Positions 940 to 47,333 of a stretch of DNA of 64,000 nucleotides are shown here, piece after piece. The notes beneath the pieces are model-generated. The model saw nothing but the letters and a program-made list of their open reading frames with translations, had not been told where the DNA came from and did not search any database. Source of the DNA: a phage. The stretch lies in the sequence record PV467749.1; one strand, 5' to 3'. The first letter of the stretch is position 1; the number at the start of each line of letters is the position of its first letter. Made by a program: the position numbers and the translations under genes.

Positions 940-1012
940 ATTAATATGCCAGTACTTGAGTACTGGCTTTTCTTTTTGTATTAAATATAGTATAATGAAT
1001 AAGGGAGGAAAT
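940..1012 (+). promoter_or_regulatory. array cassette: terminator hairpin + TAAATA-N3-TATAAT + SD
   Basis: gccagtac-ttga-gtactggc 948-967 then T-run; ttaaatatagtataat; aagggagg before ATG 1013. Confidence 0.7.
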
Positions 1013-2122: not shown

Positions 2123-2190
2123 TACTATGCCAGTACTTGATACTGGCTTTTTTTTGATTAAATATAGTATAATGAATAAAGGAGGGAATT
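2123..2190 (+). promoter_or_regulatory. array cassette: terminator + promoter + SD
   Basis: gccagta-cttga-tactggc 2129-2147 + T8; TAAATA 2159-2164, TATAAT 2168-2173, aaaggaggg 2178-2186. Confidence 0.7.
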
Positions 2191-3318
2191 ATGTTACCTT
2201 TTGTTAGAATGTTTGATTATGGGAATATAATCGAAGTTAATAATATAAAGAAAAGTGTTGTTAGTTACACTCTTGAAATGTTTCTAATGCAAGATGGCAC
2301 TGTATATGCACACGGTGAAGATTCAAACTATAATGCGGGTTTAAGTACACAGTTTGTATCGTTAGGAGCAGTTCAACAAATCACAACTGAAGTTGATGAC
2401 TTATGGTTAGGATCGTTTTCCGTTGTTATTAAAGGTGATAAAATATATGGTTCAGGTTCAACATATGCATTCACGAATTCTAATACTTTCCAACAAGGAT
2501 ATACTGACTGGGCTGTGTATTTCACTGGTATAGATGTTACCCAAATTAAAAAAATGTTATGTGGTTATACAGCATTTATATTAATGAAAGACGGAACACT
2601 TTATGGAAGAGGATGGAATCGAAGTGGTGCATTAGGTTTAGGACATAAAAATTATGTTTCAGCGTGGACTGTACTTGACACTAATGTGGATAATATATTT
2701 GGCGGTTACCTTGGCGATACATTGTTTAAGATTAAAAACGATGGAACTGTATATGGTTCAGGTTCAAATAACAGCTTTCAAGTTAAAGCAACATCGGGTG
2801 ATGCAACCACATTTGTTCCATTGTTTGATGATATATCTTATGATATAAAATGCAGTTTTGTTTCTGGTGTTGGTTTTGTAATGATAACATCTGATAATAA
2901 AATATATACAACTGGAACTACTTTTGCTGGTAGTGGTGCACATAGTAAAGTTTTTGATGTTGGTTTTACTATAGGTGATATGAGTAATATATATCATCCT
3001 GATTCGTTGGACTATTCGACTAGTGTTGTATTTTTAATTAATGCAGATACAAACAAACTAATAGCAACTGGGCATACCCCATTTACGGGAAGTAGTTCAA
3101 GTTCCCTTCCATATTTTACAGCATTTCAAGAATTCAATTTTACATCGTTCAATTCGAATACACGATATAGTGGGTCTTTATACTGGAATACATTTTACGA
3201 AGGTAATAATGTATGGATGAATGGATATAATCCTGAAAATACGGGTGGAAAGAATTTCTCATTGTGTTCAATACCGTTAGATACTATTATTACTAAGCAA
3301 ATTGATTTACCTTTTTGA
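2191..3318 (+). CDS. RCC1-like repeat protein, array member 3 (FDYGN subtype)
   Basis: MLPFVRMFDYGN start; GWNRSGALGLGHKN; C-term QIDLPF. Confidence 0.85.
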   Translation: MLPFVRMFDYGNIIEVNNIKKSVVSYTLEMFLMQDGTVYAHGEDSNYNAGLSTQFVSLGAVQQITTEVDDLWLGSFSVVIKGDKIYGSGSTYAFTNSNTFQQGYTDWAVYFTGIDVTQIKKMLCGYTAFILMKDGTLYGRGWNRSGALGLGHKNYVSAWTVLDTNVDNIFGGYLGDTLFKIKNDGTVYGSGSNNSFQVKATSGDATTFVPLFDDISYDIKCSFVSGVGFVMITSDNKIYTTGTTFAGSGAHSKVFDVGFTIGDMSNIYHPDSLDYSTSVVFLINADTNKLIATGHTPFTGSSSSSLPYFTAFQEFNFTSFNSNTRYSGSLYWNTFYEGNNVWMNGYNPENTGGKNFSLCSIPLDTIITKQIDLPF

Positions 3319-3388
3319 ATACTATGCCAGTACTTGATACTGGCTTTTTTTTTGATTAAATATAGTATAATGAATAAAGGAGGGAATT
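3319..3388 (+). promoter_or_regulatory. array cassette: terminator + promoter + SD
   Basis: gccagtacttgatactggc 3326-3344 + T-run; gattaaatatagtataatgaataaaggaggg. Confidence 0.7.
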
Positions 3389-4510
3389 ATGTTACCTTTT
3401 GTTAGAATGTTTGATTATGGAAATGAAGTACCTGATCCTAGTTCGGGATTTCGAATAATAAGTACAGGAGACGCATTACTATTAATTACTAAGAGTGGTG
3501 ATTTGTGGGTGCGTGGTTATAACCGTTATGGTAAGTTAGGTATAGGTAATAACACCACTACCTATGTACTTGATTGGACGAAGGTTAGAAGTGATGTAAA
3601 GTTTGCGTGTGGTAGTGGATTGGTAACAGTTATCTTTACTAAGGATAATCGCATATTGTACTGTGGTGACAAATGGTTTGAAACGGGTGGTGTTGGTAGT
3701 GCACAGATTTTCACATGGACAGATGTTACGCATCAATTTGGGGTAGTAGATTTGAGTACTGTAAGGGATATGAAAATATCTTATTACGCGATTGGGTTAG
3801 TTACTACTAATAATCAATTATACGCTAAGGGATTTGATAATAACCTATCATTTGGTGGGGTTACTAATAAGGCGACTGCTGTGTTTATTGCGAATAATGT
3901 ACAAGAGTTGTATACGAGTTTAGTTAGTACTATCTACGTTGATACAAGTGGTATATTACATCGTTGTGGCATGAGTGATAACGGTTCGTTGGGTAATAAT
4001 GGTAGTTTAACTTCGTATCTAAGTTATTCACAGACTGGTATGACGATTAAGGACATTGGAATGATGACTACGAACACTGGGTTATTATATACTGATTCTA
4101 GTGCACGCACGAGATATTTTATTGCTGGACAGAACTTGAATAAACAGATGGGTAATGCGGCGGGTGCGAGTGCCATTACGAGTACTTACACAGAGCTTTC
4201 TGGTAGTGTTGATAAGTTTTCTTCTTTATGGGAGAATGATGGGATATTGATGACATTTGCTGTGGGTAAGAACACTAATCAGTTATTTTATGCTGGGATG
4301 AATACTTTTCATGCGAGTGGTGGTGAATCTTCATATGCGGATACATATGAGTTAGTCCCGATGGTGTTTAATGACATACAGGAAGTGTTATGTGCACAGC
4401 GTTTATCGGTGGTACATGATTCTACGAAGTGGTATTACTGTGGTGATGCTAATTCAATGTATGGTTTACCGGACGTAAGTACTTTTACTGAGTTACCGTT
4501 GCCCTTTTAA
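3389..4510 (+). CDS. RCC1-like repeat protein, array member 4
   Basis: MLPFVRMFDYGN start; GYNRYGKLGIGNNT; C-term FTELPLPF. Confidence 0.85.
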   Translation: MLPFVRMFDYGNEVPDPSSGFRIISTGDALLLITKSGDLWVRGYNRYGKLGIGNNTTTYVLDWTKVRSDVKFACGSGLVTVIFTKDNRILYCGDKWFETGGVGSAQIFTWTDVTHQFGVVDLSTVRDMKISYYAIGLVTTNNQLYAKGFDNNLSFGGVTNKATAVFIANNVQELYTSLVSTIYVDTSGILHRCGMSDNGSLGNNGSLTSYLSYSQTGMTIKDIGMMTTNTGLLYTDSSARTRYFIAGQNLNKQMGNAAGASAITSTYTELSGSVDKFSSLWENDGILMTFAVGKNTNQLFYAGMNTFHASGGESSYADTYELVPMVFNDIQEVLCAQRLSVVHDSTKWYYCGDANSMYGLPDVSTFTELPLPF

Positions 4511-4581
4511 TAATAGGTCAGTACTCAAGTACTGGCTTTTCTTTTTGATTAAATATAGTATAATGAATAAAGGAGGGAATT
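4511..4581 (+). promoter_or_regulatory. array cassette: terminator + promoter + SD
   Basis: gtcagtactcaagtactggc 4517-4536 + T-run; same promoter/SD string. Confidence 0.7.
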
Positions 4582-5763
4582 ATGTTACCTTTTGTTAGAA
4601 TGTTTGATTATGGGAACGTCGTTGAGCCACCTGTGGGTACACGTTATACCTGTAGTGACTATAGTGCGACTTATAGTTTAATAAAGGATGGTGTGTTATA
4701 TGTATCTGGGATGAATAACTATTATCAGTTAGGTAATAACACTAACGTAACACGTTACAACGAGTGGTTAAAAGTTCCAGAGACTGATAGTGTTAAGTTT
4801 TGTAGTACTGGTTATAGTCAGACAATGTATCTGACTAACAATGGTAGGATAATGATAGCAGGTGAAGATCCTACTTCCAGTGCGACTTCGGTAAGTGTAA
4901 AGGTTTGGACGGATATAACTTCTAGATTTCGTGCAGTTGATACTAAAAAGATTGTTTATATTTCAATAGAACGCTTTGGTGTAATGATGATCATGGAAGA
5001 TGGTTCAGTATGGGCGTGTGGTGTTGATAATACTGGTTGGAGTGGACAAGGGAGTAAGACTGTTGGTTTCTTTACTTTCAGACAAATATACACCGGAAGT
5101 GCAGGAAGTGCAGTTGCTTGTACTGCTGGTACTGGTACTGCGAGAATTCTGTTAGCTAATGGAACAATCTTGTCCTCTGGTACTAATACATATCATCAAT
5201 GTAATGCTAGTACTAATCCGGCTGTTCTAACATTCACTGAATCATTCCCTGGGGTTGATCCTTCATTGATATATCAAATCAAGATGTGTAATAACAACTG
5301 TATTATATTTTTGAGTGATAAGAGATATTACGGTACTGGCTGGGGAAGTTTTGGTGCATTGGGTGATGGTGATATTACGGGTTCGAATAATAAATTCTAT
5401 GCAGGTACATTGTCAGTTGCTCCTAAAAACATGCGTGCTTATATGTCGTATCTATGTAGTTCTTCTGGGGATTCTAGTATGTACATAGGCGATGATAATT
5501 TCATATACACCTGCGGTTATCGTGGGAGGAACTTAATAAATGCCACTACAGATATTGGTACGTTCACGAAATGCATTCAAAGTGCACAAGGATACAAGAA
5601 TGGACTTATATATAGTGGGAATTATTGTGCTGTAGTTTTTGATCCAGATTTGGGTTCAGGAATGTCATATGCGGTTTCATCACCAAAATTGAATTCTCCA
5701 GCACCACAGGCTAGTGTTCCAGCATTGGGTATGAGTTCGTTACAATCTATCATTTTACCATAA
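4582..5763 (+). CDS. RCC1-like repeat protein, array member 5
   Basis: MLPFVRMFDYGN start; MNNYYQLGNNTN, GWGSFGALGDGD. Confidence 0.85.
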   Translation: MLPFVRMFDYGNVVEPPVGTRYTCSDYSATYSLIKDGVLYVSGMNNYYQLGNNTNVTRYNEWLKVPETDSVKFCSTGYSQTMYLTNNGRIMIAGEDPTSSATSVSVKVWTDITSRFRAVDTKKIVYISIERFGVMMIMEDGSVWACGVDNTGWSGQGSKTVGFFTFRQIYTGSAGSAVACTAGTGTARILLANGTILSSGTNTYHQCNASTNPAVLTFTESFPGVDPSLIYQIKMCNNNCIIFLSDKRYYGTGWGSFGALGDGDITGSNNKFYAGTLSVAPKNMRAYMSYLCSSSGDSSMYIGDDNFIYTCGYRGRNLINATTDIGTFTKCIQSAQGYKNGLIYSGNYCAVVFDPDLGSGMSYAVSSPKLNSPAPQASVPALGMSSLQSIILP

Positions 5764-5837
5764 ATGATACCAGTACTGAAATACGTACTGGTATTTTTTT
5801 GTAAATACATTATAATTATTATATGGAGATTTTAGTT
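5764..5837 (+). promoter_or_regulatory. variant array cassette: terminator + promoter + SD
   Basis: accagtac-tgaaatac-gtactggt 5769-5792 + T7; gtaaatacattataat; ggag before ATG 5838. Confidence 0.65.
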
Positions 5838-6968
5838 ATGTTACCTTTTGTTAGAATGTTTGATTATGGGAATACAGTGGCTGCTCCCACTGGTATAAAG
5901 GATTTCCAAGCAAATGGAAGCCACTGTATGGCACTAACATATAGTGGTGAGATGTGGGCTTATGGTACAAGTACAAGTGGATCAATGGGAACCGGATTCA
6001 CGGTGGGTGCTGCTGATAAGGGTTGGTACAAGTCTAACATTAGTAATGTTAAATCATTCAGTTCTAATATGCAGACTAGCACAGTGGCTTTGACAAATGA
6101 TGATAGAGTGCTAGTTTGTGGCTCAACTAGATTTGACAAATTCAGTACTCCAGATATTGCATCATCTAACCTTGATTGGTTGGATGTTACTGATCATATT
6201 CCACAGGAAGTTATTGATGCTGGGATGAAGCAAGTTATTAACCACGCATATTATGTTGCCATTTTTACTGAAAACAATCTATTATATAGTGTGGCATTAT
6301 CTTTGGGTAATACTAGTACTATAATAGATAGAACATGGCGAAGAAATACATTTGGTGATATACAAGTTGAACGTGTTGTTTCGTTGACACAAACCCCAAG
6401 TGGTCCTTTGTGTATAGTTCAAGATGCTGCCGGATACCAGTATGGTATTGGATATAATGGTAATAAGATTATTGATAATACTTCCACTAATTCATATTCT
6501 GTATATACCAAAATGGGTACACTTCCTTACAATGAATTTGCCATATCGAATAGCGGGAAATTCAGTTCAGCGGTATTATCAGATGGGAGAAGTGTTTATA
6601 GTGGTACATTTCCAAAGTCATTCAATGATAGTTTTGGTTCATTTTTGAAAGTTGGTGCGGTATCAAATACTGTGTTTGGTTTAGATGCAAAAAATATGCG
6701 TGGTCAATATGGTCAAAATCAATTACCAATTGCGTCGGCTGATAACAATGCAAGTAATGGCGTTGTGAGCCTTCGTAATGTTCCAGCGGGAACACAAACG
6801 AAAGACATTCGATTTATATGCGGAAATGATGTAAAGAACGTTTATATCATATACACAAATGAAGACGGCATTAGTTCATTTTATGGATTGGGACCAAACT
6901 TTGATCAAAATTCCTCAGCATATGCACAATTCGTCAAAGTGGATTTGCCAGGGGCATTACTAAATTAA
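5838..6968 (+). CDS. divergent propeller-repeat protein, array member 6
   Basis: MLPFVRMFDYGN at internal Met of ORF 5823; weaker repeats (GTSTSGSMGTG); C-term FVKVDLPG. Confidence 0.8.
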   Translation: MLPFVRMFDYGNTVAAPTGIKDFQANGSHCMALTYSGEMWAYGTSTSGSMGTGFTVGAADKGWYKSNISNVKSFSSNMQTSTVALTNDDRVLVCGSTRFDKFSTPDIASSNLDWLDVTDHIPQEVIDAGMKQVINHAYYVAIFTENNLLYSVALSLGNTSTIIDRTWRRNTFGDIQVERVVSLTQTPSGPLCIVQDAAGYQYGIGYNGNKIIDNTSTNSYSVYTKMGTLPYNEFAISNSGKFSSAVLSDGRSVYSGTFPKSFNDSFGSFLKVGAVSNTVFGLDAKNMRGQYGQNQLPIASADNNASNGVVSLRNVPAGTQTKDIRFICGNDVKNVYIIYTNEDGISSFYGLGPNFDQNSSAYAQFVKVDLPGALLN

Positions 6969-6978
6969 GGAGAGAAAT

Positions 6979-8181
6979 ATGTTACCTTTTGCGAGGATGG
7001 TTAAGTTCGGGAATATTGCACCAGGGCCAGAACCAATAGAGTTCTCAAATGTTTTACAACAACATTATACAAACTGTATGTATCTACATAGCCCAACTAA
7101 TACTTTATATGGTTATGGTAGTAATAACTTTTATCAATTTGGTCTTGGGAATTCAGCAGCAGTTGCGTCATTTACAGTACTTGCAACGCGATGTGCAGCC
7201 TTTTGGCTTGGTGTTCAAGGTTCATTGATGATTGATTTGGATAATAAAATATACTACACTGGGTCGGTTGGTGCATTTTCTGATTATGGAGATGCAACAC
7301 CTGTTAATGGTTATTTGAGAACATGGACTGATGTTACTGCTTCATTTAATAAAATTGGTGTTATGGCTAATATGATCAAGAGTGTATATATAGGTGAAAG
7401 TACTAGAATATTATTAACCGATGGTAGAGTAATTGCGTGTGGAAGAAATACCAATGGTGAATGTGGGTCTGGTAATCGAAATTCCATACCTACACTAACA
7501 GTTATGACTAATATGGGTGAAGTTACACATATGGCATGTTCATTACAAGGAACGCACTATATTAAATCAAATAAAAAGGCATGGTTTTGTGGTAAGGATA
7601 ACTTCGGTGAAAGTGGTTGTGGTGCTAGTTCTATGATATATTTGAACAAATATGTGATGAGTGATGTCGAACATATTAGTACTACATACGATGTTACTTG
7701 GTGGTTTACTACTGGTGGGCCTGTATATTATAGCGGGGCTAACAGTACTGGACAAGCTGGTAATGGTACGACTACATCGGTAAATCAGCTAACACCAATT
7801 AGGAACACATCGGTCACGGTTGATGTAAGTAAGTACAGTACTTTTATTTGTCCAAGTAATATGGGAAATGCATCAATTGGTGCACCTATGGCACAATACG
7901 CACCATATGTTAGAAGTAGTGGTGCTAACGGATACGGTCAAGAAGGTAATGGAACTAATACATTAGTTAGGACTTGGAATATTTTTAATCTTAATGCAAT
8001 AAGTGGTGGTTATGACAATGTTCTTATGGCATCTAAAGATTGGAGCAGAACCATAATAATTACTAAAGATTATAAATTATATGCATGTGGTGGCTGGAAT
8101 GGTAATGGTGGTAGATTGCCTGATGGCACTTATAGTATTACTACACTAACATTAATGCCAACGCAGTTATGGCAACAATAG
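6979..8181 (+). CDS. RCC1-like repeat protein, array member 7 (VKFGN subtype)
   Basis: MLPFARMVKFGNIAPGP. SD aaggagag lies 10 nt after the stop of member 6, with no cassette. GSNNFYQFGLGN, GRNTNGECGSGN, GANGYGQEGNG. Confidence 0.85.
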   Translation: MLPFARMVKFGNIAPGPEPIEFSNVLQQHYTNCMYLHSPTNTLYGYGSNNFYQFGLGNSAAVASFTVLATRCAAFWLGVQGSLMIDLDNKIYYTGSVGAFSDYGDATPVNGYLRTWTDVTASFNKIGVMANMIKSVYIGESTRILLTDGRVIACGRNTNGECGSGNRNSIPTLTVMTNMGEVTHMACSLQGTHYIKSNKKAWFCGKDNFGESGCGASSMIYLNKYVMSDVEHISTTYDVTWWFTTGGPVYYSGANSTGQAGNGTTTSVNQLTPIRNTSVTVDVSKYSTFICPSNMGNASIGAPMAQYAPYVRSSGANGYGQEGNGTNTLVRTWNIFNLNAISGGYDNVLMASKDWSRTIIITKDYKLYACGGWNGNGGRLPDGTYSITTLTLMPTQLWQQ

Positions 8182-8189
8182 GAGGAATT

Positions 8190-9299
8190 ATGTTACCTTT
8201 TGTAAGACTATTTGATTATGGGAATATTACCTCTGGTCCTAAAAATATAATTAAAGTTGGTGCTTCTACTCAAGGTCAATTCGTATTGACTGATTCACAT
8301 GAATTGTATTACATAGGCAGAAATCAAGGTGGTGAATCTGGAAATGGTAATAAAAACACGGTATCTTCTTGGACATTAGTAAGTGCAGATGTTTCTAATT
8401 TTTTCACTGGAGGACGAACACTTGTTATTATTAAAAATGACAATACGATATGGACATCAGGTGAAACATTTTGGTTCACATCATCATCAACAACTTCTTA
8501 CAGTACTACATTAGTTGATAGAACGGAGTGGTTTACAAATACAATTCCTGTGAATCAAATTGCTAATATTGTATGCAATGGTGGTGTAATATTTGTACTC
8601 AGTTCAAGTTCAGTACTCTATGGTGCTGGGGCTAATGGATACCGTGGTGTATTGGGGATTGGTTCTTCATCAATATATACATTAACACTATGTGCTTCTA
8701 ATGTGCGTAAAGTTATGTCTACTCCTAATGATAGTATGTATATTAGCATAGATAATAAGTTATATAGTTCAGGGTGGAATGACCGTGGATTACATGGCAC
8801 AGGGAACAGAACACAAGTTAACATTTGGGGACTGCGTAGTTCTGGTGTAATAGATGCAGCTATTGGTGGACATACACTCAATTACTATAATGGTACATCA
8901 TATTTCACATGTGGTACAACTCCAAACTTTCTTAGTTCAGATTCAACTACATTCAAAGCAGTTCCTGTAAGTACTTTACCTAATAATTCACCTTTGTTTA
9001 TGACAAATTCAGAGGCAACAAGCACGGCTACGCAAATTATATTAACTAGTGCATATCAGAAAGGTATTGGGGGAAACCGTGGTTTGGGATTAAACAATTC
9101 TCAAACGGGTGCTATCTATAGTGCTGCTAATTTACAATTACCTGTAGAAGTTAGTGAGATTAGTGATGTTGCTTTTAGTGACGGATTAACATCATTATTA
9201 ACCAAAGACGGGAATGTATATAGTACTGGATCGTATTACGCCATTCCAGGTGCAAGTGCAGATGTTGCAGTCTTTACTAAAATTGATTTACCAAAATAA
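8190..9299 (+). CDS. RCC1-like repeat protein, array member 8
   Basis: MLPFVRLFDYGN at ATG 8190 after taggagg; no cassette upstream; GRNQGGESGNGNKN, GWNDRGLHGTGN; C-term FTKIDLPK. Confidence 0.85.
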   Translation: MLPFVRLFDYGNITSGPKNIIKVGASTQGQFVLTDSHELYYIGRNQGGESGNGNKNTVSSWTLVSADVSNFFTGGRTLVIIKNDNTIWTSGETFWFTSSSTTSYSTTLVDRTEWFTNTIPVNQIANIVCNGGVIFVLSSSSVLYGAGANGYRGVLGIGSSSIYTLTLCASNVRKVMSTPNDSMYISIDNKLYSSGWNDRGLHGTGNRTQVNIWGLRSSGVIDAAIGGHTLNYYNGTSYFTCGTTPNFLSSDSTTFKAVPVSTLPNNSPLFMTNSEATSTATQIILTSAYQKGIGGNRGLGLNNSQTGAIYSAANLQLPVEVSEISDVAFSDGLTSLLTKDGNVYSTGSYYAIPGASADVAVFTKIDLPK

Positions 9300-9369
9300 C
9301 ATAATGCCAGTACAGAGTACTGGCTTTTCTTTTTGGTTAAATATAGTATAATGAATAAAGGAGGGAATT
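9300..9369 (+). promoter_or_regulatory. array cassette: terminator + promoter + SD
   Basis: gccagtacagagtactggc 9306-9324 + T-run; ggttaaatatagtataatgaataaaggaggg. Confidence 0.7.
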
Positions 9370-10539
9370 ATGTTACCTTTTGCAAGAATGGTTAAGTACG
9401 GGAATATTGCACCTGTTCGCCCTGAAATAAAGAAATTGGATGGTAGTCAATCACATGTCGGATTACTATATAGTACTGGTAATATGTATATGCGTGGTTC
9501 TGGTTCGAACTACCAGTTAGGTACAGGTGATGCTAGTGATGTATTAGATGGTTGGGTACATGTACCCTATGAAGTTGATGATTTTTGGGCGTGTGTGTTC
9601 GGTACATTAATAAAGACTAAAGACAATAAGTTATATTGTGCAGGACTATCAATGGGTGGATATTTTGGTGCTAGTGGTTCATATGTTAACTGGACTGAAG
9701 TAACTTCATTATTTGTGGGTATTAACGTCTCACAAATAAAGAATATAGAATTTACATCAGCGAATACTTCCGGTAGTACACTAATATTGATGTTAGATGG
9801 TAGTTTATATGGGTTCGGCATGAACAGTAGATCAGAGTTAGGTGTTACAAACAAAGTCGTATCTCCTATTCTTATAGATACTGGGGTAAGTTCAATAGGA
9901 GCACATAAATTAGGTGGTTCATCGTTCCATTATATAAAAGACGGTAAGTACTACAGATGTGGAACATCGGTTGGTCGTAATATTGGGATTTCTTCTTTGA
10001 CTACTTTTACTGAATTGAGTATTCCTGATAACGTTATATCTATGCAAATATTATATGACAACGTACAGTTATTATGTTTAGGAAGTTCTGGATATAGTAT
10101 CTATATGGCTGGTTCGAATAATTATGGTGGAAGAGGTGTTGATGGTAGTACTATTTACTCTACATTCAGGAAAATAGATCTTACTGGATTTGGTGTTGTT
10201 CCCAGTGAAATACTATTTGAAAATGCAGGGAATGGTTATGTTAATATATCAACTGATAGTACTGGCATATATACATGTGGTGGTGGTGCTGGTGTTAATG
10301 GTTTAGGTAGACCGAGTAATGTGATATCAAGTTCACAGTTGGGTTTGATTGAGTTCAGTACAGGATTATACCCAGCAAATATAAGTCGTGTATTTTCACA
10401 GAGTTCATCTTCTGTTATATATTGTATAGTTAATAATGAATTGTACTGGGCTGGGAGTAATTCATATTTTACTGATCAAACTACAAATACTGGTACACAA
10501 TTTTCATTTATTAAGATGAAGGATATGCCTTCTGCTTAG
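9370..10539 (+). CDS. RCC1-like repeat protein, array member 9 (VKYGN subtype)
   Basis: MLPFARMVKYGNIAPVRP; GSGSNYQLGTGD, GMNSRSELGV. Confidence 0.85.
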   Translation: MLPFARMVKYGNIAPVRPEIKKLDGSQSHVGLLYSTGNMYMRGSGSNYQLGTGDASDVLDGWVHVPYEVDDFWACVFGTLIKTKDNKLYCAGLSMGGYFGASGSYVNWTEVTSLFVGINVSQIKNIEFTSANTSGSTLILMLDGSLYGFGMNSRSELGVTNKVVSPILIDTGVSSIGAHKLGGSSFHYIKDGKYYRCGTSVGRNIGISSLTTFTELSIPDNVISMQILYDNVQLLCLGSSGYSIYMAGSNNYGGRGVDGSTIYSTFRKIDLTGFGVVPSEILFENAGNGYVNISTDSTGIYTCGGGAGVNGLGRPSNVISSSQLGLIEFSTGLYPANISRVFSQSSSSVIYCIVNNELYWAGSNSYFTDQTTNTGTQFSFIKMKDMPSA

Positions 10540-10612
10540 ATTTTATGCCAGTACTTGATACTGGCTTTTCTTTTTTGTATTAAATATAGTATAATGAATA
10601 AAGGAGGGAATT
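10540..10612 (+). promoter_or_regulatory. array cassette: terminator + promoter + SD
   Basis: gccagtacttgatactggc 10547-10565 + T-run; canonical promoter/SD string. Confidence 0.7.
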
Positions 10613-11792
10613 ATGTTACCTTTTGTTAGATTATTTGATTATGGGAATATTGCCCCTGTCAAAGATACTGTTGTTAAAATTAATAGTGATGAAAATTCAA
10701 TAAGCGTATTATACAGTGATGGGTCATTATATATGCGTGGACGGAAACCAATCAGCAAAAATGGGAGTTACTGGTTCATCTTTTTTGGATAGATGGGTTT
10801 TATGTCCTTATAGTGTTGATGATTTCTGGAGTTCTCTATATTGTACTATAATTAGAACAAAACAAGGGGAATTGTACTATAGTGGGACTAACTCAGTTTT
10901 TGGTATATCATCTTCGGTTTCAACATGGACTCGTTGTGAATCATATTTTGGATCTATTTCTCCGAGTTCAATAAAAGATATAAAAATAACATCATCAACC
11001 GGAACTAACAATTCCATGTTAATACTAACAAGTGACGGGCAGTTATATGGTATAGGCATGAATGGTGCAAGTGAATTGGGTACAGCAACTGCACCAATTA
11101 CATCTCCACTCTTAATTGACACTAGTGTATCTGCAATTGCATCTAGTGAAATGAGCAGAAACTTTCACTATATAAAAGATGGTATATATTATCGTTGTGG
11201 TGAGAATACTTTTTATCAATTAGGAACCGGTGATAATAAGCCTATTACTAGTTTTACTGCATTGAATCTTGGTAGTTCTCATGTAATTGCAGTACAAGCT
11301 ACACGATGGGTAACACGTTTGATTGTTCAAAGTAGTACATCTGCTTTGTCTTTAATGGCGGCTGGTTGGAACACACAGTTGACTATAGGTGGTTCTGAAA
11401 ATACTGGTATAATAAGGTCATCATTTACTACCAATCCCTATACCGATATAACAGCAAATTCATTCGATAAACTTTCACCAGTATCCTATGTTAATGCAAT
11501 AAAATCCAGTACTAACATTATTAATACGAATGGTAAGGGATATAATTCTAATGGTGCTGGTTTAGGCCGCAACGCAGTCTCTGGGAATTATGGTTCAATA
11601 TTACCAATAGAATTCTTTGATGATAGTGTTGACTTATCACATGTTGAGTGGTTTGGTACGATTGGTAATGGTTCAGTATCGGTAGTTAGTATAGGTGAGG
11701 ATTTATACTGGACTGGAAACCCTGGGTATTTTACTGAACAAGGTGAGACTGGATATATATATAAATTCAAAAAGTGCGTTCCTTTTAGATAA
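10613..11792 (+). pseudogene. RCC1-like array member 10, frame disrupted near nt 10739-10743
   Basis: ATG 10613 gives MLPFVRLFDYGNIAPVKD...SLYMRG and then hits a stop at 10790. The homologous continuation (GNQSAKMGVTGSSFLDRWVLCPYSVDDFW, compare member 9) is in the +1 frame, i.e. ORF 10716..11792. Confidence 0.7.
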
Positions 11793-11863
11793 ACACAATG
11801 CCAGTACTTGAGTACTGGCATTCTTTTTGATTAAATATAGTATAATGAATAAAGGAGGGAAAT
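11793..11863 (+). promoter_or_regulatory. array cassette: terminator + promoter + SD
   Basis: gccagtacttgagtactggc 11800-11819 + T-run; canonical string. Confidence 0.7.
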
Positions 11864-13042
11864 ATGTTACCTTTTGTTAGAATGTTTGATTATGGAAATA
11901 TTACACCTGGTGTACCAACACCAAAAGATTTCTTTTTGGATGTATCATCTGGCAAACCTACTATGTTGATGCTTTTGGATAACGGCGAAGTATGGGGTTG
12001 TAGTAATGATGGACAACTATTAGGTTTAAACACTACCGCGTCAGCATACGGTAAGCCATACTTTGTTATGGAAAATGTTAAGTTAATGTTCGCGTCAGTG
12101 TGGGGGACATTACTTATCACTAACGATAATAAAGTGAAGTACACTGGCAGACAAACCATGTTTAATGGTTCATCAAATTATTGGAGTACTTTTCAAGATT
12201 TTACAACGAAGTACACTGCTGTTGGTATTGACATAAGTACTATAGAAAAAGTTGGATTCAATACTGGTACATTATTCCTACGCACAACTAATGGTGATTT
12301 ATGGGGTCATGGAAATAACGCTAATGGTTATTTCGGAAAAGGAAATACCGTGGCGAATTACACACCAACCAAGATCAAGACTAATACATTAGATTTTTGG
12401 TTAACTAATGGGAATGCAATTGTACAAACTGGCACTAAAGAATTCTATGCTACTGGTGATAATTATTATTATCAAATGGGTGTTACGACTACTGGTAATA
12501 TAACAACATGGACACAGATTTTTAAGGACGCTACTGATGATCCTGAGTTTGAATATAATGCAATGCGAACAAGTCAAGCAACATTAATACTTTACGGTAA
12601 AGGAACTACATTCTACGCAAGTGGGAGAAACTATATGAGTTCATGGGGTGTATCTGGAGCACCAGTGGATGTTAATACTACACTATATAAAGGTACGTTA
12701 CCATTTGTACCCGGTGATTTAACATATTTTTATGCTGGTCGAGAACAAGCATATTGGACTAACTTAATCATTGATACTAATGGAGTTCTGTACATATCTG
12801 GAACAAAAGATGGGGGTGGTGGTTCAAATGCACCTATATTTGAAGTATTACCGACCCCAAGTAGTGCAGTTGGGTTCAAATGTGGCACAGCAACACGTTC
12901 TTATGCTATAATGGATTGTACTGGCAATCAATTTATGTACGCACGTGGTACAGCTTTGTCAGACCCTGCTGGCTTTACACCAATGAGTACACCATTAAAT
13001 CATACATGGACACACATAACAGATTTTAAATTTAACCGATAA
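11864..13042 (+). CDS. RCC1-like repeat protein, array member 11
   Basis: MLPFVRMFDYGN; GNNANGYFGKGN, GDNYYYQMGV. Confidence 0.85.
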   Translation: MLPFVRMFDYGNITPGVPTPKDFFLDVSSGKPTMLMLLDNGEVWGCSNDGQLLGLNTTASAYGKPYFVMENVKLMFASVWGTLLITNDNKVKYTGRQTMFNGSSNYWSTFQDFTTKYTAVGIDISTIEKVGFNTGTLFLRTTNGDLWGHGNNANGYFGKGNTVANYTPTKIKTNTLDFWLTNGNAIVQTGTKEFYATGDNYYYQMGVTTTGNITTWTQIFKDATDDPEFEYNAMRTSQATLILYGKGTTFYASGRNYMSSWGVSGAPVDVNTTLYKGTLPFVPGDLTYFYAGREQAYWTNLIIDTNGVLYISGTKDGGGGSNAPIFEVLPTPSSAVGFKCGTATRSYAIMDCTGNQFMYARGTALSDPAGFTPMSTPLNHTWTHITDFKFNR

Positions 13043-13112
13043 TATTATGCCAGTACTTGATACTGGCATTTCTTTTTGTATTAAATATAGTATAATGAAT
13101 AAAGGAGGAAAT
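13043..13112 (+). promoter_or_regulatory. array cassette: terminator + promoter + SD
   Basis: gccagtacttgatactggc 13049-13067 + T-run; canonical string. Confidence 0.7.
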
Positions 13113-14288: not shown

Positions 14289-14367
14289 AATGTGAAATAC
14301 AATGCATGTACTCAGTACTGGCTTTTCTTTTTTATTAAATATAGTATAATGAATAAAGGAGGGAAAT
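14289..14367 (+). promoter_or_regulatory. array cassette with degenerate hairpin
   Basis: gcatgtactcagtactggc 14303-14321 (two mismatches in the stem) + T-run; canonical promoter/SD. Confidence 0.55.
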
Positions 14368-15717
14368 ATGTTACCTTTTGTTAGAATGTTTGATTATGGG
14401 AATACAGTAGATGTTCCAACTGTAAAGAAATTCGACTCCATTGGTATGGGTCATGATAGGAATGGTGGTGGTAATTGGTTTGGTGCAATATTAGCATCAA
14501 ATGGAAATTTATATGGTATTGGTCAAACAAAATATGTTTCTTTTGGTATAACACCAACCAATGGTACAGGAATTGAATTAGTACGAAAAAATGTAAACAA
14601 TTTTTGGCTACTATCAAATGGAATAATAGTTAAAGATAATGATGGTTCATATCATTTTTGTGGTGTATATGCAAATGGAATATTCACACATTCAAGTATA
14701 ACTACAGCACCTTTTATAACAAATGGTTTTATAAATGTATCTTCTTATTTTTCTAACGTAGGTGAAGTTGTGGAAATGGTATTCTGTGGTGGATATGATA
14801 AAGGTCCAGCAACATCATTAACCCCAGCATACACTTCAAAATATAGTTGTATTTTGGCAGCATTGAACACTAATGGTGAAATCTGGTATATGGGTTTGTC
14901 GATACAAGGTTTAATAAACAACTCCACATCAGATTACTACTTTACTTCTTTTACTAAAGATAATCAATTGACACAAAAAGCAGTTTCATTAAGATGCACA
15001 ATAGACATGTCACATAATAATGTGTATTTTGTTGGTAATAGACCTGTACTTTATGCCAAATTAGAAGATGGTACAATCGTAGGCAAGGGATATAATATAC
15101 GATATGGTATACAAAAACCAGCTAGTACAAACCAAGTGATTAAAACGTGGACTACAGTGGCTGTAATCGGAACAGCAGATGATTTTGATGCAACAAACGA
15201 AGGCATGATGTACTGCTCAAATTCACAACTATATCGCTGTGGTAATGGTGGTGGTTTTTCTTTCTGGAATGGTACAAGTAGTGTGTATTATATGGGCTAC
15301 AACGTTGGTATGTTTCTAATCGGTGCGAATGACGTCAACCGTGTAGCGGGTGGTTTTAACGTCCTAACTACAGGGATTAAAGATGATGTAGGTATAAATG
15401 TACCAACTTCATCCAGTACCAAAATACGAATGAACTACTGTGGAACTGTAATTTTTGAACCCGGAACAACATCAATATATAAAGCACATGGTGTTTATAG
15501 TGATTACTATGCTAGTCCTTCATGGCAAGCGGGAGCAGTCGCTTCATTTACATATGAAGACATTGGTATTAAAATCAAAGATGCTATGTATGTTGGTGGT
15601 ACTCTTGGGTTTACAACATATGGATTATTAGTGGTTAGTACTGAAGGTAAGGTATATTGGAGAGGTGTGTACAACGGTGTAACATATAAAACACTCACAG
15701 AAATACATTTGTTGTAA
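14368..15717 (+). CDS. divergent propeller-like protein, array member 13 (449 aa)
   Basis: MLPFVRMFDYGN start. The body is poorly RCC1-like; membership rests on the N-terminus and the cassette. Confidence 0.75.
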   Translation: MLPFVRMFDYGNTVDVPTVKKFDSIGMGHDRNGGGNWFGAILASNGNLYGIGQTKYVSFGITPTNGTGIELVRKNVNNFWLLSNGIIVKDNDGSYHFCGVYANGIFTHSSITTAPFITNGFINVSSYFSNVGEVVEMVFCGGYDKGPATSLTPAYTSKYSCILAALNTNGEIWYMGLSIQGLINNSTSDYYFTSFTKDNQLTQKAVSLRCTIDMSHNNVYFVGNRPVLYAKLEDGTIVGKGYNIRYGIQKPASTNQVIKTWTTVAVIGTADDFDATNEGMMYCSNSQLYRCGNGGGFSFWNGTSSVYYMGYNVGMFLIGANDVNRVAGGFNVLTTGIKDDVGINVPTSSSTKIRMNYCGTVIFEPGTTSIYKAHGVYSDYYASPSWQAGAVASFTYEDIGIKIKDAMYVGGTLGFTTYGLLVVSTEGKVYWRGVYNGVTYKTLTEIHLL

Positions 15718-15787
15718 TATAGTGCCAGTACTCTGTACTGGCTTTTCTTTTTGTATTAAATATAGTATAATGAATAAAGGAGGAATT
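15718..15787 (+). promoter_or_regulatory. array cassette: terminator + promoter + SD
   Basis: gccagtactctgtactggc 15723-15741 + T-run; canonical string. Confidence 0.7.
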
Positions 15788-17623: not shown

Positions 17624-17700
17624 GAGTACCTCAATTAAATCGCTGTAAAATTGTACATTATAAAATGATTAAATAAAGTATAACACAAGGAGATTTTATC
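17624..17700. promoter_or_regulatory. divergent promoter region
   Basis: The + side has gattaaataaagtataac + aaggag before ATG 17701. The minus side has ttttataat upstream of ATG 17623. Confidence 0.5.
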
Positions 17701-18825
17701 ATGTTACCTTTCGTATTGTTATTTGATTATGGGAACGAAAAACAAGAAAGTTCTTATGATGTTAGTGTATATGGAAACAATAACTACATTTTAAATAAAC
17801 AAACTGGAAACCTTTTTGCATCCGGTGCTGCGGCATTCATGGGTGATAACACAGTTAAGTATTATATTACCCAAATAGAATCAAATGTTCATAGCTGTGA
17901 GATAGGTTTCCTATCATCATGGATAATTAAGAAGGACAAAACTGTTTTCATTTTAGGAAACAAAAGCAGTATAGGATTAACTGGTTCGACAACATCATGG
18001 TTCGAAATTACAAATTTATTTTCTGCTGTTCCTGAAATATGGGACAACCTATTTGAATGTAAAGTTCAATTGGGATATAACTGTATACGTGTTATGACAC
18101 CACTAGGATCAATCTATGCGATTGGTACAAACACTTATGGTGCATTGGGTACTGGTACTACATCCTCATCAACTTCGTTCGTTAAAAGTGGTGCTGTGGA
18201 TGCTGTACGCATGGAATCAACAGAACGTTCAGTGTTCTATCAAAACAGTTCTGGACAATGGTTTGGATGTGGTGATAACACATATGGTATACTAGGTCTA
18301 GGAACTACCGCGAGTCGTGTAAACTCATACACCGCACCAGTATGGACTAATGCAGAAGCTGTTAGCTTCTCTAACCGTGGGATCATATACAGCCTCAATG
18401 GTACTCTATACTCATGTGGTGACAAAGTTAATGGTCAGCTAGGGGATGGATATACACAAAGCATAGACGCTGCCAGGAGCACACCATACACCATAGGAAC
18501 CGCATTCCAAATTGGTAAGGCAATAACATCAGCTACACAAGCATCAGCCAACGTATTCATTGGTAAAGATAATAAGTTCTATGGTACTGGTAGTATTGCT
18601 GCTGGTATAAATGGTAGTACTAGTGCTGCATTAAGTAAAGTTACTGCGTTATCAGCAGCACTACCACCTGACATTACATACAATGATATTATAACATTTA
18701 ATACAGGGACCGTAACTTTTATTCAAGCAAAAGGACAACTATATTATGTTGGTAGAAGAACTTACATAGATAATAGTTCAGACGTTACCACACAGTTCAG
18801 TGTAATTGGTGGCTTAGATAATTAA
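17701..18825 (+). CDS. RCC1-like repeat protein, array member 15/16 (last)
   Basis: MLPFVLLFDYGN; GTNTYGALGTGT, GDNTYGILGLGT, GDKVNGQLGDG. Confidence 0.85.
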   Translation: MLPFVLLFDYGNEKQESSYDVSVYGNNNYILNKQTGNLFASGAAAFMGDNTVKYYITQIESNVHSCEIGFLSSWIIKKDKTVFILGNKSSIGLTGSTTSWFEITNLFSAVPEIWDNLFECKVQLGYNCIRVMTPLGSIYAIGTNTYGALGTGTTSSSTSFVKSGAVDAVRMESTERSVFYQNSSGQWFGCGDNTYGILGLGTTASRVNSYTAPVWTNAEAVSFSNRGIIYSLNGTLYSCGDKVNGQLGDGYTQSIDAARSTPYTIGTAFQIGKAITSATQASANVFIGKDNKFYGTGSIAAGINGSTSAALSKVTALSAALPPDITYNDIITFNTGTVTFIQAKGQLYYVGRRTYIDNSSDVTTQFSVIGGLDN

Positions 18826-24345: not shown

Positions 24346-24373
24346 ATTATACAGTACTGAATGAGTTTGTCAA
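24346..24373 (-). promoter_or_regulatory. sigma70-type promoter
   Basis: Minus sense TTGACA-aactcattcagtactg-TATAAT (16-nt spacer). Confidence 0.7.
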
Positions 24374-27516: not shown

Positions 27517-29028
27517 TTATTTTTTATCCTTTCCAACACCACGGTCGTACTCTTTGAATGAGTTATCAAGTGTAGTTAGTGCATACTCATATGCTTCTGG
27601 TGATTCAATGTCAACATCATCTGCACCATTTACTAAATCAGCCCAAGCCTTTTGAAGTTTACGAGCATTGTTACCAACATTATCTTTAATCCAACTAATA
27701 TTTTTGTTGATACTTTTACTATCAGCACCTGCTTTTTTACCAATCTCGGATATCCACATCATTAACTTTTGAAGTTCATGAATTGATTTATCAGTCATTT
27801 CAAGATGTTCTTCTTCCATACCGTCAGAATCAGATGAACCAACGTCAATTCCATGTTTAGCTAATAGTTTACCAAGTTCAAAGAATGCAGCTTCAGCAGG
27901 GAAGTCATAACCTTTGTCTTTGTAGTTATTCCATGCACTATCAAACTCGTCAACAAAACGGTTAGCATAATCTGGATTTTTAACTAATGCTTTATATACT
28001 GCCATTGCATGTTCAAAACCTTCTTTATCTGACCCAAACTCTTCCATCTCAGGACGATGAATATATCCATCCATATCAACGGTATCAGGTAGATCTTCTT
28101 GTTCAGGTTCTACATCTTTCTGTTCAACTGCACCTTCTTCATCTGCACGCTTTAGATAACCATCTGGTGTTACCTTCTCACCATGTTCTGCTTCATACTT
28201 TTTCATAGTGTTGAATGCAGCATCCATAGCTGTTACGAAGCGACTTTTCTCACCTTGTACATAAGATTTAAGTGCACTGTTAACTGCATCTGATACGAGC
28301 TTAACCTTATCGTCTTTACCTTCTAAACGGTTTTCAAGTTTAGCCAGTACATTCTTGATTTGCTGGGCATTAGCACGGTCTGCTTTACCAATACTATCAA
28401 AAGTTTTAAGAATACCATCAAGACTTGCTTCACCCTGTTCAGGTTCTTTCGAATCTTCTTTGTGTGTACCTTCAAGTGCACGCATGATAGTACTGAATAC
28501 TTCAGTGGGTTCAGTACTCTTATTACCTTTCATTGCATCAAGTACAGCTTGTGCTTTACCTTTGAGTTCTTCTTTAGGAACTGCCTGTAGTGCTTTGACA
28601 ATACCCTGAATCAACTGTGGTTTGTTAGCAAAGATCTTACCTAAGTTATCAGATAACTCTTTAACAGGGTTAGCTGCTTTAGGAGCTTCTGGTTTTGGTT
28701 CTTCTTTAGGAACTGCTTGTTCTTTCTCAGCACGTTCCATATCAGCAAGGCGTTGTTTCTGTGTTGCGTTAAGAAGACCTAATGAGTTAACATAACGTAG
28801 CTTTTCTAGCTCAGTCATGTTCTCAGTACTCTTAACTTCACCTGCTTCTGCGTTTGCCTTACCAGCTAAACCTGTCCCTTGATTACGTGAACCACGTGAC
28901 CCCTGTCCTGCTTGGTAGCTATTTTGACGACGATTGCGTTCACTCCATTTATCAGAGTGACCTGCCATGTTCCCGCCATTTTTATCAGTAAATTGACCTG
29001 GCATTTGATTTCTCTCCATAGATTTCAT
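27517..29028 (-). CDS. large acidic/K-E-rich hypothetical protein (503 aa)
   Basis: Longest ORF of the early block; segments LRYVNSLGLLNATQ and ...IVKALQAVPKEELKGKA are paralogous to ORF 29861-30259. Confidence 0.7.
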   Translation of the reverse strand: MKSMERNQMPGQFTDKNGGNMAGHSDKWSERNRRQNSYQAGQGSRGSRNQGTGLAGKANAEAGEVKSTENMTELEKLRYVNSLGLLNATQKQRLADMERAEKEQAVPKEEPKPEAPKAANPVKELSDNLGKIFANKPQLIQGIVKALQAVPKEELKGKAQAVLDAMKGNKSTEPTEVFSTIMRALEGTHKEDSKEPEQGEASLDGILKTFDSIGKADRANAQQIKNVLAKLENRLEGKDDKVKLVSDAVNSALKSYVQGEKSRFVTAMDAAFNTMKKYEAEHGEKVTPDGYLKRADEEGAVEQKDVEPEQEDLPDTVDMDGYIHRPEMEEFGSDKEGFEHAMAVYKALVKNPDYANRFVDEFDSAWNNYKDKGYDFPAEAAFFELGKLLAKHGIDVGSSDSDGMEEEHLEMTDKSIHELQKLMMWISEIGKKAGADSKSINKNISWIKDNVGNNARKLQKAWADLVNGADDVDIESPEAYEYALTTLDNSFKEYDRGVGKDKK

Positions 29029-29069
29029 ATTGTTTATTCTCTATGACTATATTTATAGTATAAAGAAAA

Positions 29070-29847: not shown

Positions 29848-29868
29848 GGGCTGACTGAAGTCAACCCC
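29848..29868 (-). terminator. fused terminator/promoter module copy 5 (variant loop)
   Basis: gggctgactgaagtcaacccc; cgtataat on the minus strand downstream. Confidence 0.6.
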
Positions 29869-30259
29869 TTTTAATTATTTTTTTAAACTTATGTTTTTCG
29901 CCTTCAATAGAGTTCACGATGTCATCATGAATCTTGCGAAGGTTATGAGTTTTCTTTAGTGCTTCATGTAGTGCACGGAATGCTGCGTGTACTGTTGCCT
30001 TGAAGTGCTCTTTAGGAGTCACTTTAAGTTTCTCAATGATATCACGTACATAAATTGGATGATCTTCAAATACACGATTCAATTCATGGCCTAGTGATTC
30101 TAGACTGAAAGCTTTTTCACGTGAAGGACGATCATGTGCAAGACTTTGGTCAGGCTTTAGTAGACCTAGTGAATCAAGATACTTATGCTTATGTGCATTA
30201 TCAATTCCAGAAATATCCACATCATGCGATGGATCTTTCTTATTCCATTTATCAACCAT
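29861..30259 (-). CDS. hypothetical protein, short paralog of ORF 27517-29028
   Basis: KYLDSLGLLKPDQ and IIEKLKVTPKEHFKATV align to the 503-aa protein; aaggag SD. Confidence 0.65.
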   Translation of the reverse strand: MVDKWNKKDPSHDVDISGIDNAHKHKYLDSLGLLKPDQSLAHDRPSREKAFSLESLGHELNRVFEDHPIYVRDIIEKLKVTPKEHFKATVHAAFRALHEALKKTHNLRKIHDDIVNSIEGEKHKFKKIIKRG

Positions 30260-30370
30260 TTCATACTCCTTAAAGAGATAAATTACTTTAATATTTATAC
30301 TTCATGTGCTGTTTATTTCAACAGACACTTAAGATTATATCACATATGAAATGGTTGTTCCAACGTCAAA

Positions 30371-35210: not shown

Positions 35211-35238
35211 ATTATACAGTACTACAAACGTTTGTCAA
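35211..35238 (-). promoter_or_regulatory. sigma70-type promoter
   Basis: Minus sense TTGACA-aacgtttgtagtactg-TATAAT. Confidence 0.65.
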
Positions 35239-39172: not shown

Positions 39173-39200
39173 ATTATACAGTACTGATATCTTATGTCAA
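39173..39200 (-). promoter_or_regulatory. sigma70-type promoter
   Basis: Minus sense TTGACA-taagatatcagtactg-TATAAT. Confidence 0.7.
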
Positions 39201-40498: not shown

Positions 40499-40499
40499 T

Positions 40500-40727
40500 T
40501 TATATTTCTCCAGCAAGACACTCAAAAGTGACTTTTTTAACTTCGATAACTCGTACCAAATAGTATCCATGAAAGAAATTAAAACCAATCATTTGTGATA
40601 ATGCATCTGCTTCAGATTTTGCACGGATACATGATAGATATAGTTCTCGTATATCGCCATCCAACGATGCTTGTTTCTCGTCATTGATAACAATAGAACG
40701 AATCTCAAAACGAACACCATAACTCAT
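40500..40727 (-). CDS. hypothetical protein
   Basis: 75 aa. Confidence 0.55.
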   Translation of the reverse strand: MSYGVRFEIRSIVINDEKQASLDGDIRELYLSCIRAKSEADALSQMIGFNFFHGYYLVRVIEVKKVTFECLAGEI

Positions 40728-41566: not shown

Positions 41567-41567
41567 A

Positions 41568-41586: not shown

Positions 41587-41593
41587 TTTAATC

Positions 41594-42559
41594 TTAAAAA
41601 TCTTCGAACTCATAACCTTTTGTCTTAACCATCTTACGCAGTCGTTCCATTGCTTCAGAGTACTTACGGTGCAATGAAGAACGAGCAGTCATGACCTTAC
41701 CCTTCTCATCTTCAAAACCACTCTCAATGATTTCTCGTAGCGTTTCTGGTTCAGAATAAGAACCAATACCATGTACACGTTCAATCAATTCACGGTCTTT
41801 GGCAGATAGGTTACTCATCATTTCTGCAATACTTTGTACCAGTGGGGTACTGACAGTTTCTACGCCTAAGTTGTAATCAGGTTCAACTGAAGTAACAATG
41901 TCAGATAATGTACTTTCTGAATCATTACTCATTTTCATATTCAATGCTACATAAGTGTTATTGTAAGTTAGACAATTCTTAACGTGTTGAATCTCAATAC
42001 CAGTCTCTTTTGACACCATCTCAGGAGTTGGGTATTTACCATGTTTCCTTTGATACTCTTCTACACAACGTTTCACATAAATGTTATTAACACTCATATA
42101 ACGTGGGAAATGCACTAGATAATTAGCATCCGCACTTTCGTTATAGATTGTCATGTACACAGTTGTTGTTGCATATGTAATGAACTTAACATTTTTGGTA
42201 GTGTCGAACGTATGAATTGCTCGCATTAAACCTTCAACACCATAAGAAATCTTATCTTCAAATGGGATAAAACATGTACACTTACGTGCAACACTTACTA
42301 CCATTGGATAGTTGTAGCGAACCAAAAGGTCAATGTTCTTTTCAACGTCAATACCATCACGCACTGCTTGGATGAGCATTTCATTCGTTATCCCTTTAGG
42401 GCGAGTTAAGCTGATACCTGTTTTTGGTTTCTCAAACTTGTGACCGTCATGTTCTTCTTCTTCGACGGAATCAAGAGCCTCTAATACGTTGACTTCTTCA
42501 CTAGCAAAACACTCATCCAGTACTTCTTCAGAAATTGCATTTAAATCAAGCTTTTTCAC
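41594..42559 (-). CDS. sigma70-family RNA polymerase sigma factor
   Basis: Region 2-like YGVEGLMRAIHTFDTTKNVKFITYATTTVYMTIYN; region 4-like LSAKDRELIERVHGIG...TLREI...ARSSLHRKYSEAMERLRKM; GTG start with ggag SD. Confidence 0.75.
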   Translation of the reverse strand: MKKLDLNAISEEVLDECFASEEVNVLEALDSVEEEEHDGHKFEKPKTGISLTRPKGITNEMLIQAVRDGIDVEKNIDLLVRYNYPMVVSVARKCTCFIPFEDKISYGVEGLMRAIHTFDTTKNVKFITYATTTVYMTIYNESADANYLVHFPRYMSVNNIYVKRCVEEYQRKHGKYPTPEMVSKETGIEIQHVKNCLTYNNTYVALNMKMSNDSESTLSDIVTSVEPDYNLGVETVSTPLVQSIAEMMSNLSAKDRELIERVHGIGSYSEPETLREIIESGFEDEKGKVMTARSSLHRKYSEAMERLRKMVKTKGYEFEDF

Positions 42560-43079: not shown

Positions 43080-43080
43080 A

Positions 43081-47217: not shown

Positions 47218-47333
47218 AAAATCCCCTTATTGATATTCCATTTAAGTATACGTCAAAAACACAACTCAGTCAAGGTGCTTTTTTACCTATCTAGAATAAA
47301 TACGTTATAATAATTATACCAATGGAGGGATGA

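Follow-up and report, generated by a model that had tools for sequence, protein, structure and literature searches.

A TAAATA-centred motif ahead of RCC1-like genes of a jumbo coliphage is probably a local form of a T4-type late promoter

The 64,000-nt stretch of phage DNA analysed here (sequence record PV467749.1, hereafter the window) carries at 2159-2173 a promoter-like 15-mer, TAAATA-N3-TATAAT (TAAATANNNTATAAT), ahead of a gene for an RCC1-like repeat protein. The locus raises the question of which form of RNA polymerase would initiate at a site that contains a perfect TATAAT, and which half of the motif is the signal. Over bases 40000-48000 the window shares 99.1% identity with Escherichia phage fEgEco12 (PP777464.1) and ∼84% with 121Q and PBECO4; by sequence the window phage is an Asteriusvirus-like E. 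coli jumbo phage, and the whole fEgEco12 genome (374,733 bp) served as a stand-in for the parts of the phage outside the window. The data presented below make it probable that the motif is a cassette-amplified local form of the phage's genome-wide T4-type late promoter, read by a gp55-family late sigma. In this comparison TAAATA is the defining half of the motif and TATAAT a local feature.

The window contains 12 exact matches to TAAATANNNTATAAT, all on the + strand, against an expectation from shuffled sequences of 0.14 and a shuffle maximum of 2. Ten of these matches are the identical 15-mer within one duplicated terminator-promoter-RBS cassette, a repeated junction of ∼80 nt that lies ahead of genes encoding RCC1-like virion proteins. 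The independent instances therefore number about three, namely the RCC1 family, its diverged members at 5802 and 17670, and the site at 47297. A thirteenth, variant copy (GATTAAATAAAGTATAAC / TAAATAAAGTATAAC) is the one at 17670, ahead of the gene at 17701. The order of elements in the junction is a hairpin of the GCCAGTACTTGAGTACTGGC type with its T-run, then GATTAAATATAGTATAATGAATAAAGGAGGGAATT, then the ATG and the conserved N-terminus MLPFVRMFDYGN. A terminator scan of the window found 25 terminators against 8.4 expected. The products of the cassette genes are RCC1-like repeat proteins, and the + strand genes that bear the motif encode RCC1-like or Ig-like proteins. No match in the window has a TTGACA-like hexamer 16-18 nt upstream; in the cassettes that position is filled, as the initial annotation had observed, by the T-run (GGCTTT or similar) of the preceding terminator. 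Neither does a TGn extended -10 element precede TATAAT at any window match, where the preceding bases are AG, AT or GT, and a sigma70 promoter scan of the window listed no cassette site.

As each cassette follows its own terminator, re-initiation would be needed at every junction, and read-through in place of initiation is unlikely given the strong hairpin and T-run directly before each promoter. Each RCC1-like gene would thus come as a self-contained unit, with a terminator, a late promoter and a Shine-Dalgarno sequence ahead of it, and we propose that each paralog is transcribed separately late in infection. Two parts of the array depart from this layout. Three RCC1-like genes within 5838-9299 (starts at 5838, 6979 and ∼8169/8190) lie behind one promoter; unlike in the other cassettes, no promoter or terminator was found between them, and they are probably co-transcribed as a three-gene operon. 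Behind the promoter at 10581 a 59-codon ORF opens at 10613 and the remaining RCC1-like frame is a separate ORF (10716-11792), which points to a frameshift in this paralog or to an error in the sequencing. The features of the window are listed in Table 1.

Table 1. Coordinates of the 2159 promoter, its predicted relatives and associated features in the window.
Feature	Position	Strand	Context
Intrinsic terminator hairpin GCCAGTACTTGATACTGGC and T-run of the preceding cassette gene	2129..2147	+	T-run fills the would-be -35 position; found by terminator scan
Studied promoter (predicted late)	2159..2173	+	TAAATA 2159-2164, TATAAT 2168-2173
RCC1-like repeat protein gene, N-terminus MLPFVRMFDYGN	2191..3318	+	AGGAGG Shine-Dalgarno at 2180-2185
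Predicted cassette late promoter ATTAAATATAGTATAAT	982..996	+	Ahead of gene starting 1013
Predicted cassette late promoter	3357..3371	+	Ahead of gene 3389-4510
Predicted cassette late promoter	4550..4564	+	Ahead of gene 4582-5763
Predicted late promoter, diverged variant GTAAATACATTATAAT	5802..5816	+	Ahead of gene at 5838
Predicted cassette late promoter	9338..9352	+	Ahead of gene 9370-10539
Predicted cassette late promoter	10581..10595	+	Ahead of ORF at 10613, apparently disrupted
Predicted cassette late promoter	11832..11846	+	Ahead of gene 11864-13042
Predicted cassette late promoter	13082..13096	+	Ahead of gene starting 13113
Predicted cassette late promoter	14336..14350	+	Ahead of gene 14368-15717
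Predicted cassette late promoter	15757..15771	+	Ahead of gene starting 15788
Predicted late promoter, variant TAAATAAAGTATAAC	17670..17684	+	Ahead of RCC1-like gene 17701-18825
Predicted late promoter, independent instance AATAAATACGTTATAAT	47297..47311	+	Ahead of structural (Ig-like) gene 47334-48491
Perfect T4-consensus TATAAATA	29050..29057	-	Ahead of ORF 27517-29028 (likely start 29004), ortholog of fEgEco12 g555 'virion structural protein'
Perfect TATAAATA	30292..30299	-	Ahead of ORF 29861-30259, ortholog of fEgEco12 g551 'virion structural protein'
Phage sigma70-family factor, early gene	41594..42559	-	Pfam regions 2 and 3; RpoD/RpoS alignment through region 4

The initial annotation had divided the promoters of the window into two classes, one without a -35 element ahead of + strand genes and one of textbook TTGACA promoters ahead of minus-strand genes. 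This division is borne out by the distribution of near-consensus (at least 11 of 12 positions) TTGACA-N16-18-TATAAT sites, all 27 of which lie on the minus strand, with shuffled sequences giving 4.5 for both strands together. The minus-strand genes behind the sigma70 consensus promoters are small ORFs, and their separation from the RCC1-like and Ig-like virion-type genes fits the suggested split into early and late temporal classes. The accompanying view that the -35-less class is restricted to the + strand is not tenable, as two perfect copies of the T4 late box TATAAATA lie on the minus strand ahead of virion genes (Table 1) and the late genes of fEgEco12 occupy both strands. On this evidence the strand pattern follows gene class, reflecting merely where virion and early genes lie in the window. 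Four of the early promoters, with minus-strand -35 hexamers starting at 22200, 26822, 29864 and 33459, share AAGGGTTGACTTCGGTCAGCCCTTTTTGCTATAAT, in which a GC-rich hairpin with a T-run after it contains the -35 TTGAC; terminator and following promoter thus make up a single unit.

The two classes meet at 47297-47340, where the predicted + strand late promoter TAAATACGTTATAAT faces, and overlaps, a minus-strand sigma70 consensus promoter (TTGACA 47340-47335, N16, TATAAT 47318-47313). This 44-nt face-to-face stretch is 100% conserved in 121Q while its flanks have diverged, and the opposed promoters could be an early/late switch that acts by promoter occlusion. A 37-nt block at 47297 that is 100% identical between the window and 121Q does not discriminate between the two motif halves, since it also contains the minus-strand sigma70 promoter and a ribosome binding site.

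The relative weight of the two halves emerges from the fEgEco12 genome. The full bipartite pattern occurs there 16 times, 13 of them within the RCC1 array; the other three sites belong to the Ig-like structural gene equivalent to the window gene at 47334, to a tail-tube gene and to the vicinity of the holin gene. In an independent ORF call, sense TAAATA was located 15-75 nt upstream of 76 called genes, compared with 15 for antisense TATTTA. The upstream sites (77) constitute 41% of all 186 occurrences of TAAATA in the genome, and are concentrated in the 98-265 kb interval and the RCC1 array. Outside the cassettes, (A/C)TAAATA is found 20-60 nt before the start codon of ∼47 genes, mostly virion genes and on both strands. 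Overall, nTAAATA precedes ∼60 distinct genes, and it stands before nearly all neck, sheath, tube, tail-fibre, baseplate, capsid-module and other structural genes, again on both strands. Alignment of the 47 non-cassette sites revealed A (30 sites) or C (13 sites) as the base before TAAATA, a purine as the sixth base after it in 41 sites, and an AT-rich region downstream. An exact TATAAT at the N3 spacing was present at only one of the 47 sites, and matches of at least 5/6 at N3 or N4 at eight. The alignment contains no conserved -35 element, upstream information being confined to a weak T-run, and the flanks upstream of the box have diverged both in 121Q and in an eight-phage alignment of tail-tube promoters. 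Perfect copies of TATAAATA are rare, with nine in the genome. Thus, of the proposal that the + strand genes share TAAATA-N3-TATAAT, the recurrence of the pattern stands, while the role of TATAAT as a defining part does not, the genome-wide core being TAAATA.

Where it does not precede genes, the core appears to be avoided. In fEgEco12 TAAATA ranks 1 of 1408 as the most depleted hexamer, with 185 copies where 786 would be expected, and reaches 0.48 of the Markov-4 expectation; in the window it occurs 45 times against 123 ± 12 expected. The genome-wide hexamer counts of fEgEco12 displayed no depletion of TATAAT. Avoidance of TAAATA suggests that the short box works as a signal on its own.

Other words of the fEgEco12 genome also deviate from expectation. 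The palindrome AGTACT is ∼8-fold over-represented (1115 sites against ∼127 expected), with examples in the window at 2131-2136, 24350-24373, 35215-35238, 39177-39200 and 58128-58151. It occurs in early promoters, either as AAAAGTACTTGCA-N17-TATAAT or as TTGACA...CAGTACTGTATAAT with AGTACTG abutting the -10 hexamer, and also in the stems of cassette terminators and in late-gene leaders (TTTCAGTAC); AGTACT may be a binding or modification site. The PstI site CTGCAG is absent (0 against ∼120 expected, Markov-4) and GACATC/GATGTC is depleted (33 against 112), a scarcity that looks like restriction-site avoidance.

Comparison across phages separates the two halves of the motif in the same manner. 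Upstream of the tail-tube ortholog in eight phages, which include members of Asteriusvirus, Alcyoneusvirus, Eneladusvirus and Mimasvirus, every sequence has GCTAAATA behind the terminator, whereas TATAAT occupies its position only in fEgEco12 and PBECO4 and is replaced by AATACT, GATAAA or TATACA in other genera. The fEgEco12 tail-tube promoter can be aligned with those of CBB and GAP32. One RCC1 gene of 121Q is preceded by CCTAAATATAATAACG (CCTAAATA kept), in which TAAATA is retained and TATAAT lost; a perfect TATAAT is also seen in 121Q. The unit of terminator hairpin, T-run and GCTAAATA sits between two tail-tube paralogs and has been kept in the eight phages of several genera, its terminator-then-late-promoter layout being that of the RCC1 cassettes. 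With respect to the cassette genes themselves, mass spectrometry of phAPEC6 virions identified several RCC1-like 'DNA condensation proteins' of ∼40 kDa, in support of these genes having a late, structural role.

These features resemble the late promoters of phage T4, which consist of a TATA box of 8 bp, placed roughly a helical turn ahead of the start site with its first T at -13, and an AT-rich segment just downstream, display no -35 conservation, occur in either polarity, and are read by gp55, a minimal sigma without a domain-4 equivalent (Geiduschek and Kassavetis, PMC2988020). The T4 box sequence was taken as TATAAATA, as quoted in PMC5259590, and hence spans -13 to -6. On this geometry the purine peak of the 47-site alignment falls exactly at +1. 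The working core, nTAAATA with A or C usually first, would correspond in TAAATA to the final six positions of the T4 late box, lying at about -11 to -6, and would be read by the host RNA polymerase core carrying a gp55-family late sigma, with no need for a -35 element. The TATAAT half would then lie at about -2 to +4, as an AT-rich melting segment that contains the start site rather than as a sigma70 -10 box, and transcription from the 2159 promoter is predicted to start at 2169-2171. The start-site position, the timing and the identity of the reading factor are what we infer from this correspondence. The two systems share an A/T-only box, the lack of a -35 element, the AT-rich downstream segment, a purine at the predicted +1 (41 of the 47 fEgEco12 sites), the presence of the box before virion genes on either strand, and a gp55 homolog encoded near gp47/gp46. 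They differ in that the phage core is shorter (TAAATA after A/C) and the perfect T4 box is rare.

The candidate for the reading factor is the fEgEco12 protein g336, which matches phrog_12791, 'sigma factor for late transcription', at 1.4e-152 and the T4 gp55 family phrog_234 at 1.5e-16. T4 gp55 in return matches phrog_234 at 2.9e-69 and phrog_12791 at 4.8e-7, and a direct BLASTP comparison of g336 with T4 gp55 gave 25% identity over 121 aa (E = 3e-4). By tblastn, 88 records contain a match that covers at least 80% of g336, and the closest genes outside its own clade are those for cyanophage gp55 (27-32% identity). The gene is directly upstream of the gp47/gp46 homologs, and gene 55 of T4 is likewise near gp47/gp46. 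The annotated start of g336 is probably too far upstream; Met34 (MTNRPKRKKYLNNADLLREIQKSK) is the more likely initiator and resembles the N-terminus of T4 gp55. Local phmmer searches with T4 gp33 and gp55 gave no matches, NCBIfam holds no model matching g336 or T4 gp55, and phmmer of g336 against PDB sequences retrieved no gp55 chain, its matches to PTS enzyme I being attributed to chance. Most likely, then, the reader is this gp55 homolog, encoded outside the window, and from its 99%-identical relatives the window phage would also possess it.

The candidate sigma is not a replica of its T4 counterpart, which acts together with the co-activator gp33 and the DNA-loaded sliding clamp gp45. An insertion of roughly 115 aa separates the gp55-like N-terminal segment of g336 from its sigma-domain-2-like core, and the protein has no obvious match to the C-terminal SLDFLYE segment of T4 gp55, which we take to be the clamp-binding site. 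T4-style activation by the clamp is thus unsupported for g336; a sliding clamp gene (g359) is annotated in fEgEco12. A homolog of gp33, a small and poorly conserved protein, was not detected when T4 gp33 was compared by BLASTP with the six-frame ORFs of fEgEco12 (best E = 0.066).

A late motif of this kind has precedent within the clade. In CBB and GAP32 an ATAAATA motif followed by A/T-rich sequence precedes structural genes and was likened to the T4 box, in addition to RpoD-like early promoters and a divergent class before DNA-synthesis genes; CBB encodes both a gp55-like sigma (CBB_244) and a separate sigma70-like factor in its early region, and no gp33 was found by its authors (Buttimer et al. 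2017, PMC5259590). The phages thus share clade, motif, A/T-rich downstream segment and association with structural genes with the window phage. The differences are that the earlier work concerns Mimasvirus phages and derived the motif solely with MEME, and that the cassette form, with T before TAAATA and TATAAT at N3, is undescribed there. The late motif has therefore already been proposed for CBB/GAP32, and the present analysis extends a known mechanism to another member of the clade. The genome papers on phAPEC6 and fEgEco12 do not discuss promoters, and the RNA-seq paper on PA5oct contains TATAATA/TTGAC motifs only and no late motif. Beyond the clade there is a likeness to the T4-like cyanophages in the relaxed first position of the box and in the similarity of g336 to cyanophage gp55, although hosts and phage lineage differ. 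The late promoter of T4-like cyanophages is NATAAATA.

The cassette promoters themselves are not typical of the genome-wide class. The base before TAAATA in them is T or G, in contrast to the A or C of 43 of the 47 non-cassette sites, and the base at the predicted +1 is T rather than a purine. The RCC1 family, the 47297 site and the tail-tube gene all have an exact TATAAT at the fixed N3 spacing, a frequency above the class average, and TATAAT in this subset may make up for a weak core or permit an additional start of the sigma70 type. It is conceivable, if unlikely, that the cassette promoters are a distinct reinforced or dual form of late promoter, in which a suboptimal core (T or G first) is combined with an exact TATAAT at 3-nt spacing; either the gp55-like sigma and the host sigma70 would both initiate, or the gp55 homolog, given its insertion of roughly 115 aa and the failure to detect a gp33 partner or a T4-like C-terminal segment, would make extra contacts and act clamp-free. 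If true, a dual or clamp-free form would depart from the T4 model of replication-coupled late transcription.

The reading in which TATAAT is a genuine host sigma70 -10 box and the cassettes are -35-less sigma70 promoters, alone or beside gp55 initiation, expressed outside the late period, is improbable. The perfection of TATAAT in all cassettes and in 121Q, its recurrence at fixed N3 in independent instances and the atypical base before the cassette TAAATA are consistent with such a role. Against it, the cassettes have neither a -35 nor a TGn extended -10 and were not listed by the sigma70 scan, whereas the sigma70-type promoters of the window are near-consensus in both hexamers. In addition, a sigma70-type start would give a leader of 11-12 nt that begins at the Shine-Dalgarno sequence. 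TATAAT is also not conserved at the tail-tube ortholog, is exact in the cassettes yet occurs at N3 in only one of the 47 other sites, and is not avoided in the genome. Extended -10 (TGnTATAAT) sigma70 promoters and the -35-less promoters of phage sigmas such as phiEco32 gp36 are recognised through the -10 region only and need no -35 element. The cassettes differ from these in having no TG at -15/-14 and in that TAAATA, not TATAAT, is conserved; furthermore, the sigma encoded in the window aligns through region 4.

It is that sigma, at 41594-42559, which the initial annotation had put forward as reader of the + strand class. The protein contains Sigma70_r2 and r3 (Pfam), belongs to phrog_351, and its gene lies in the midst of early genes that have sigma70 promoters. 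The alignment with RpoD_Cterm covers residues 78-296 and that with RpoS 79-319, each reaching the C-terminal end of the RpoD or RpoS sequence and hence running through region 4. This suggests promoters with a -35 element, so that a box without one would be a less natural target for the factor. As a true sigma70-family member located among early genes it could drive a later class, with TATAAT as its -10 hexamer and TAAATA as an upstream extension. Indeed, no distinct third promoter class that might employ it was found in fEgEco12: a k-mer search of upstream regions without sigma70-like or TAAATA signals yielded only TGnTATAAT and AGTACT-containing words, and the 'TGAAACG' -35 class of CBB, a possible target of the sigma70-family factor, had 1-2 matches and no support. 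Sigma region 3 reaches -17 to -13. With TATAAT as the -10 box, TAAATA would sit at -21 to -16, outside this reach. The genome-wide occurrence of TAAATA without TATAAT, the variability of TATAAT at the orthologous tail-tube promoter, and the existence of a dedicated gp55-family sigma whose T4 homolog reads such boxes likewise argue against this factor. Reading of the bipartite motif by the early-region sigma is quite improbable, and this protein is probably not the late-class reader.

Finally, the 15-mer might be no promoter signal itself, carried along in a recently duplicated or gene-converted cassette or acting as an RNA processing or translation element, as 10 of the 12 matches are copies of one junction and conservation at 47297 is confounded by the overlapping minus-strand promoter and ribosome binding site; this is highly improbable given that the TAAATA core precedes dozens of unrelated late genes with strong orientation (76 against 15), is avoided in the rest of the genome more than any other hexamer, and shows no variation at an orthologous promoter compared across eight phages, while its flanks vary.

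The reading of the motif as a T4-type late promoter would provide a concrete map of late transcription units for the Asteriusvirus jumbo coliphages, some of which have been considered for phage therapy. It would also correct a mis-assignment, in that the annotated early-region 'RNA polymerase sigma factor' is probably not the late factor, the diverged gp55 homolog being more likely to fulfil this role. That TAAATA is avoided to such an extreme degree suggests that the box is a potent signal by itself, which may be useful in phage engineering and in the design of late-expression cassettes.
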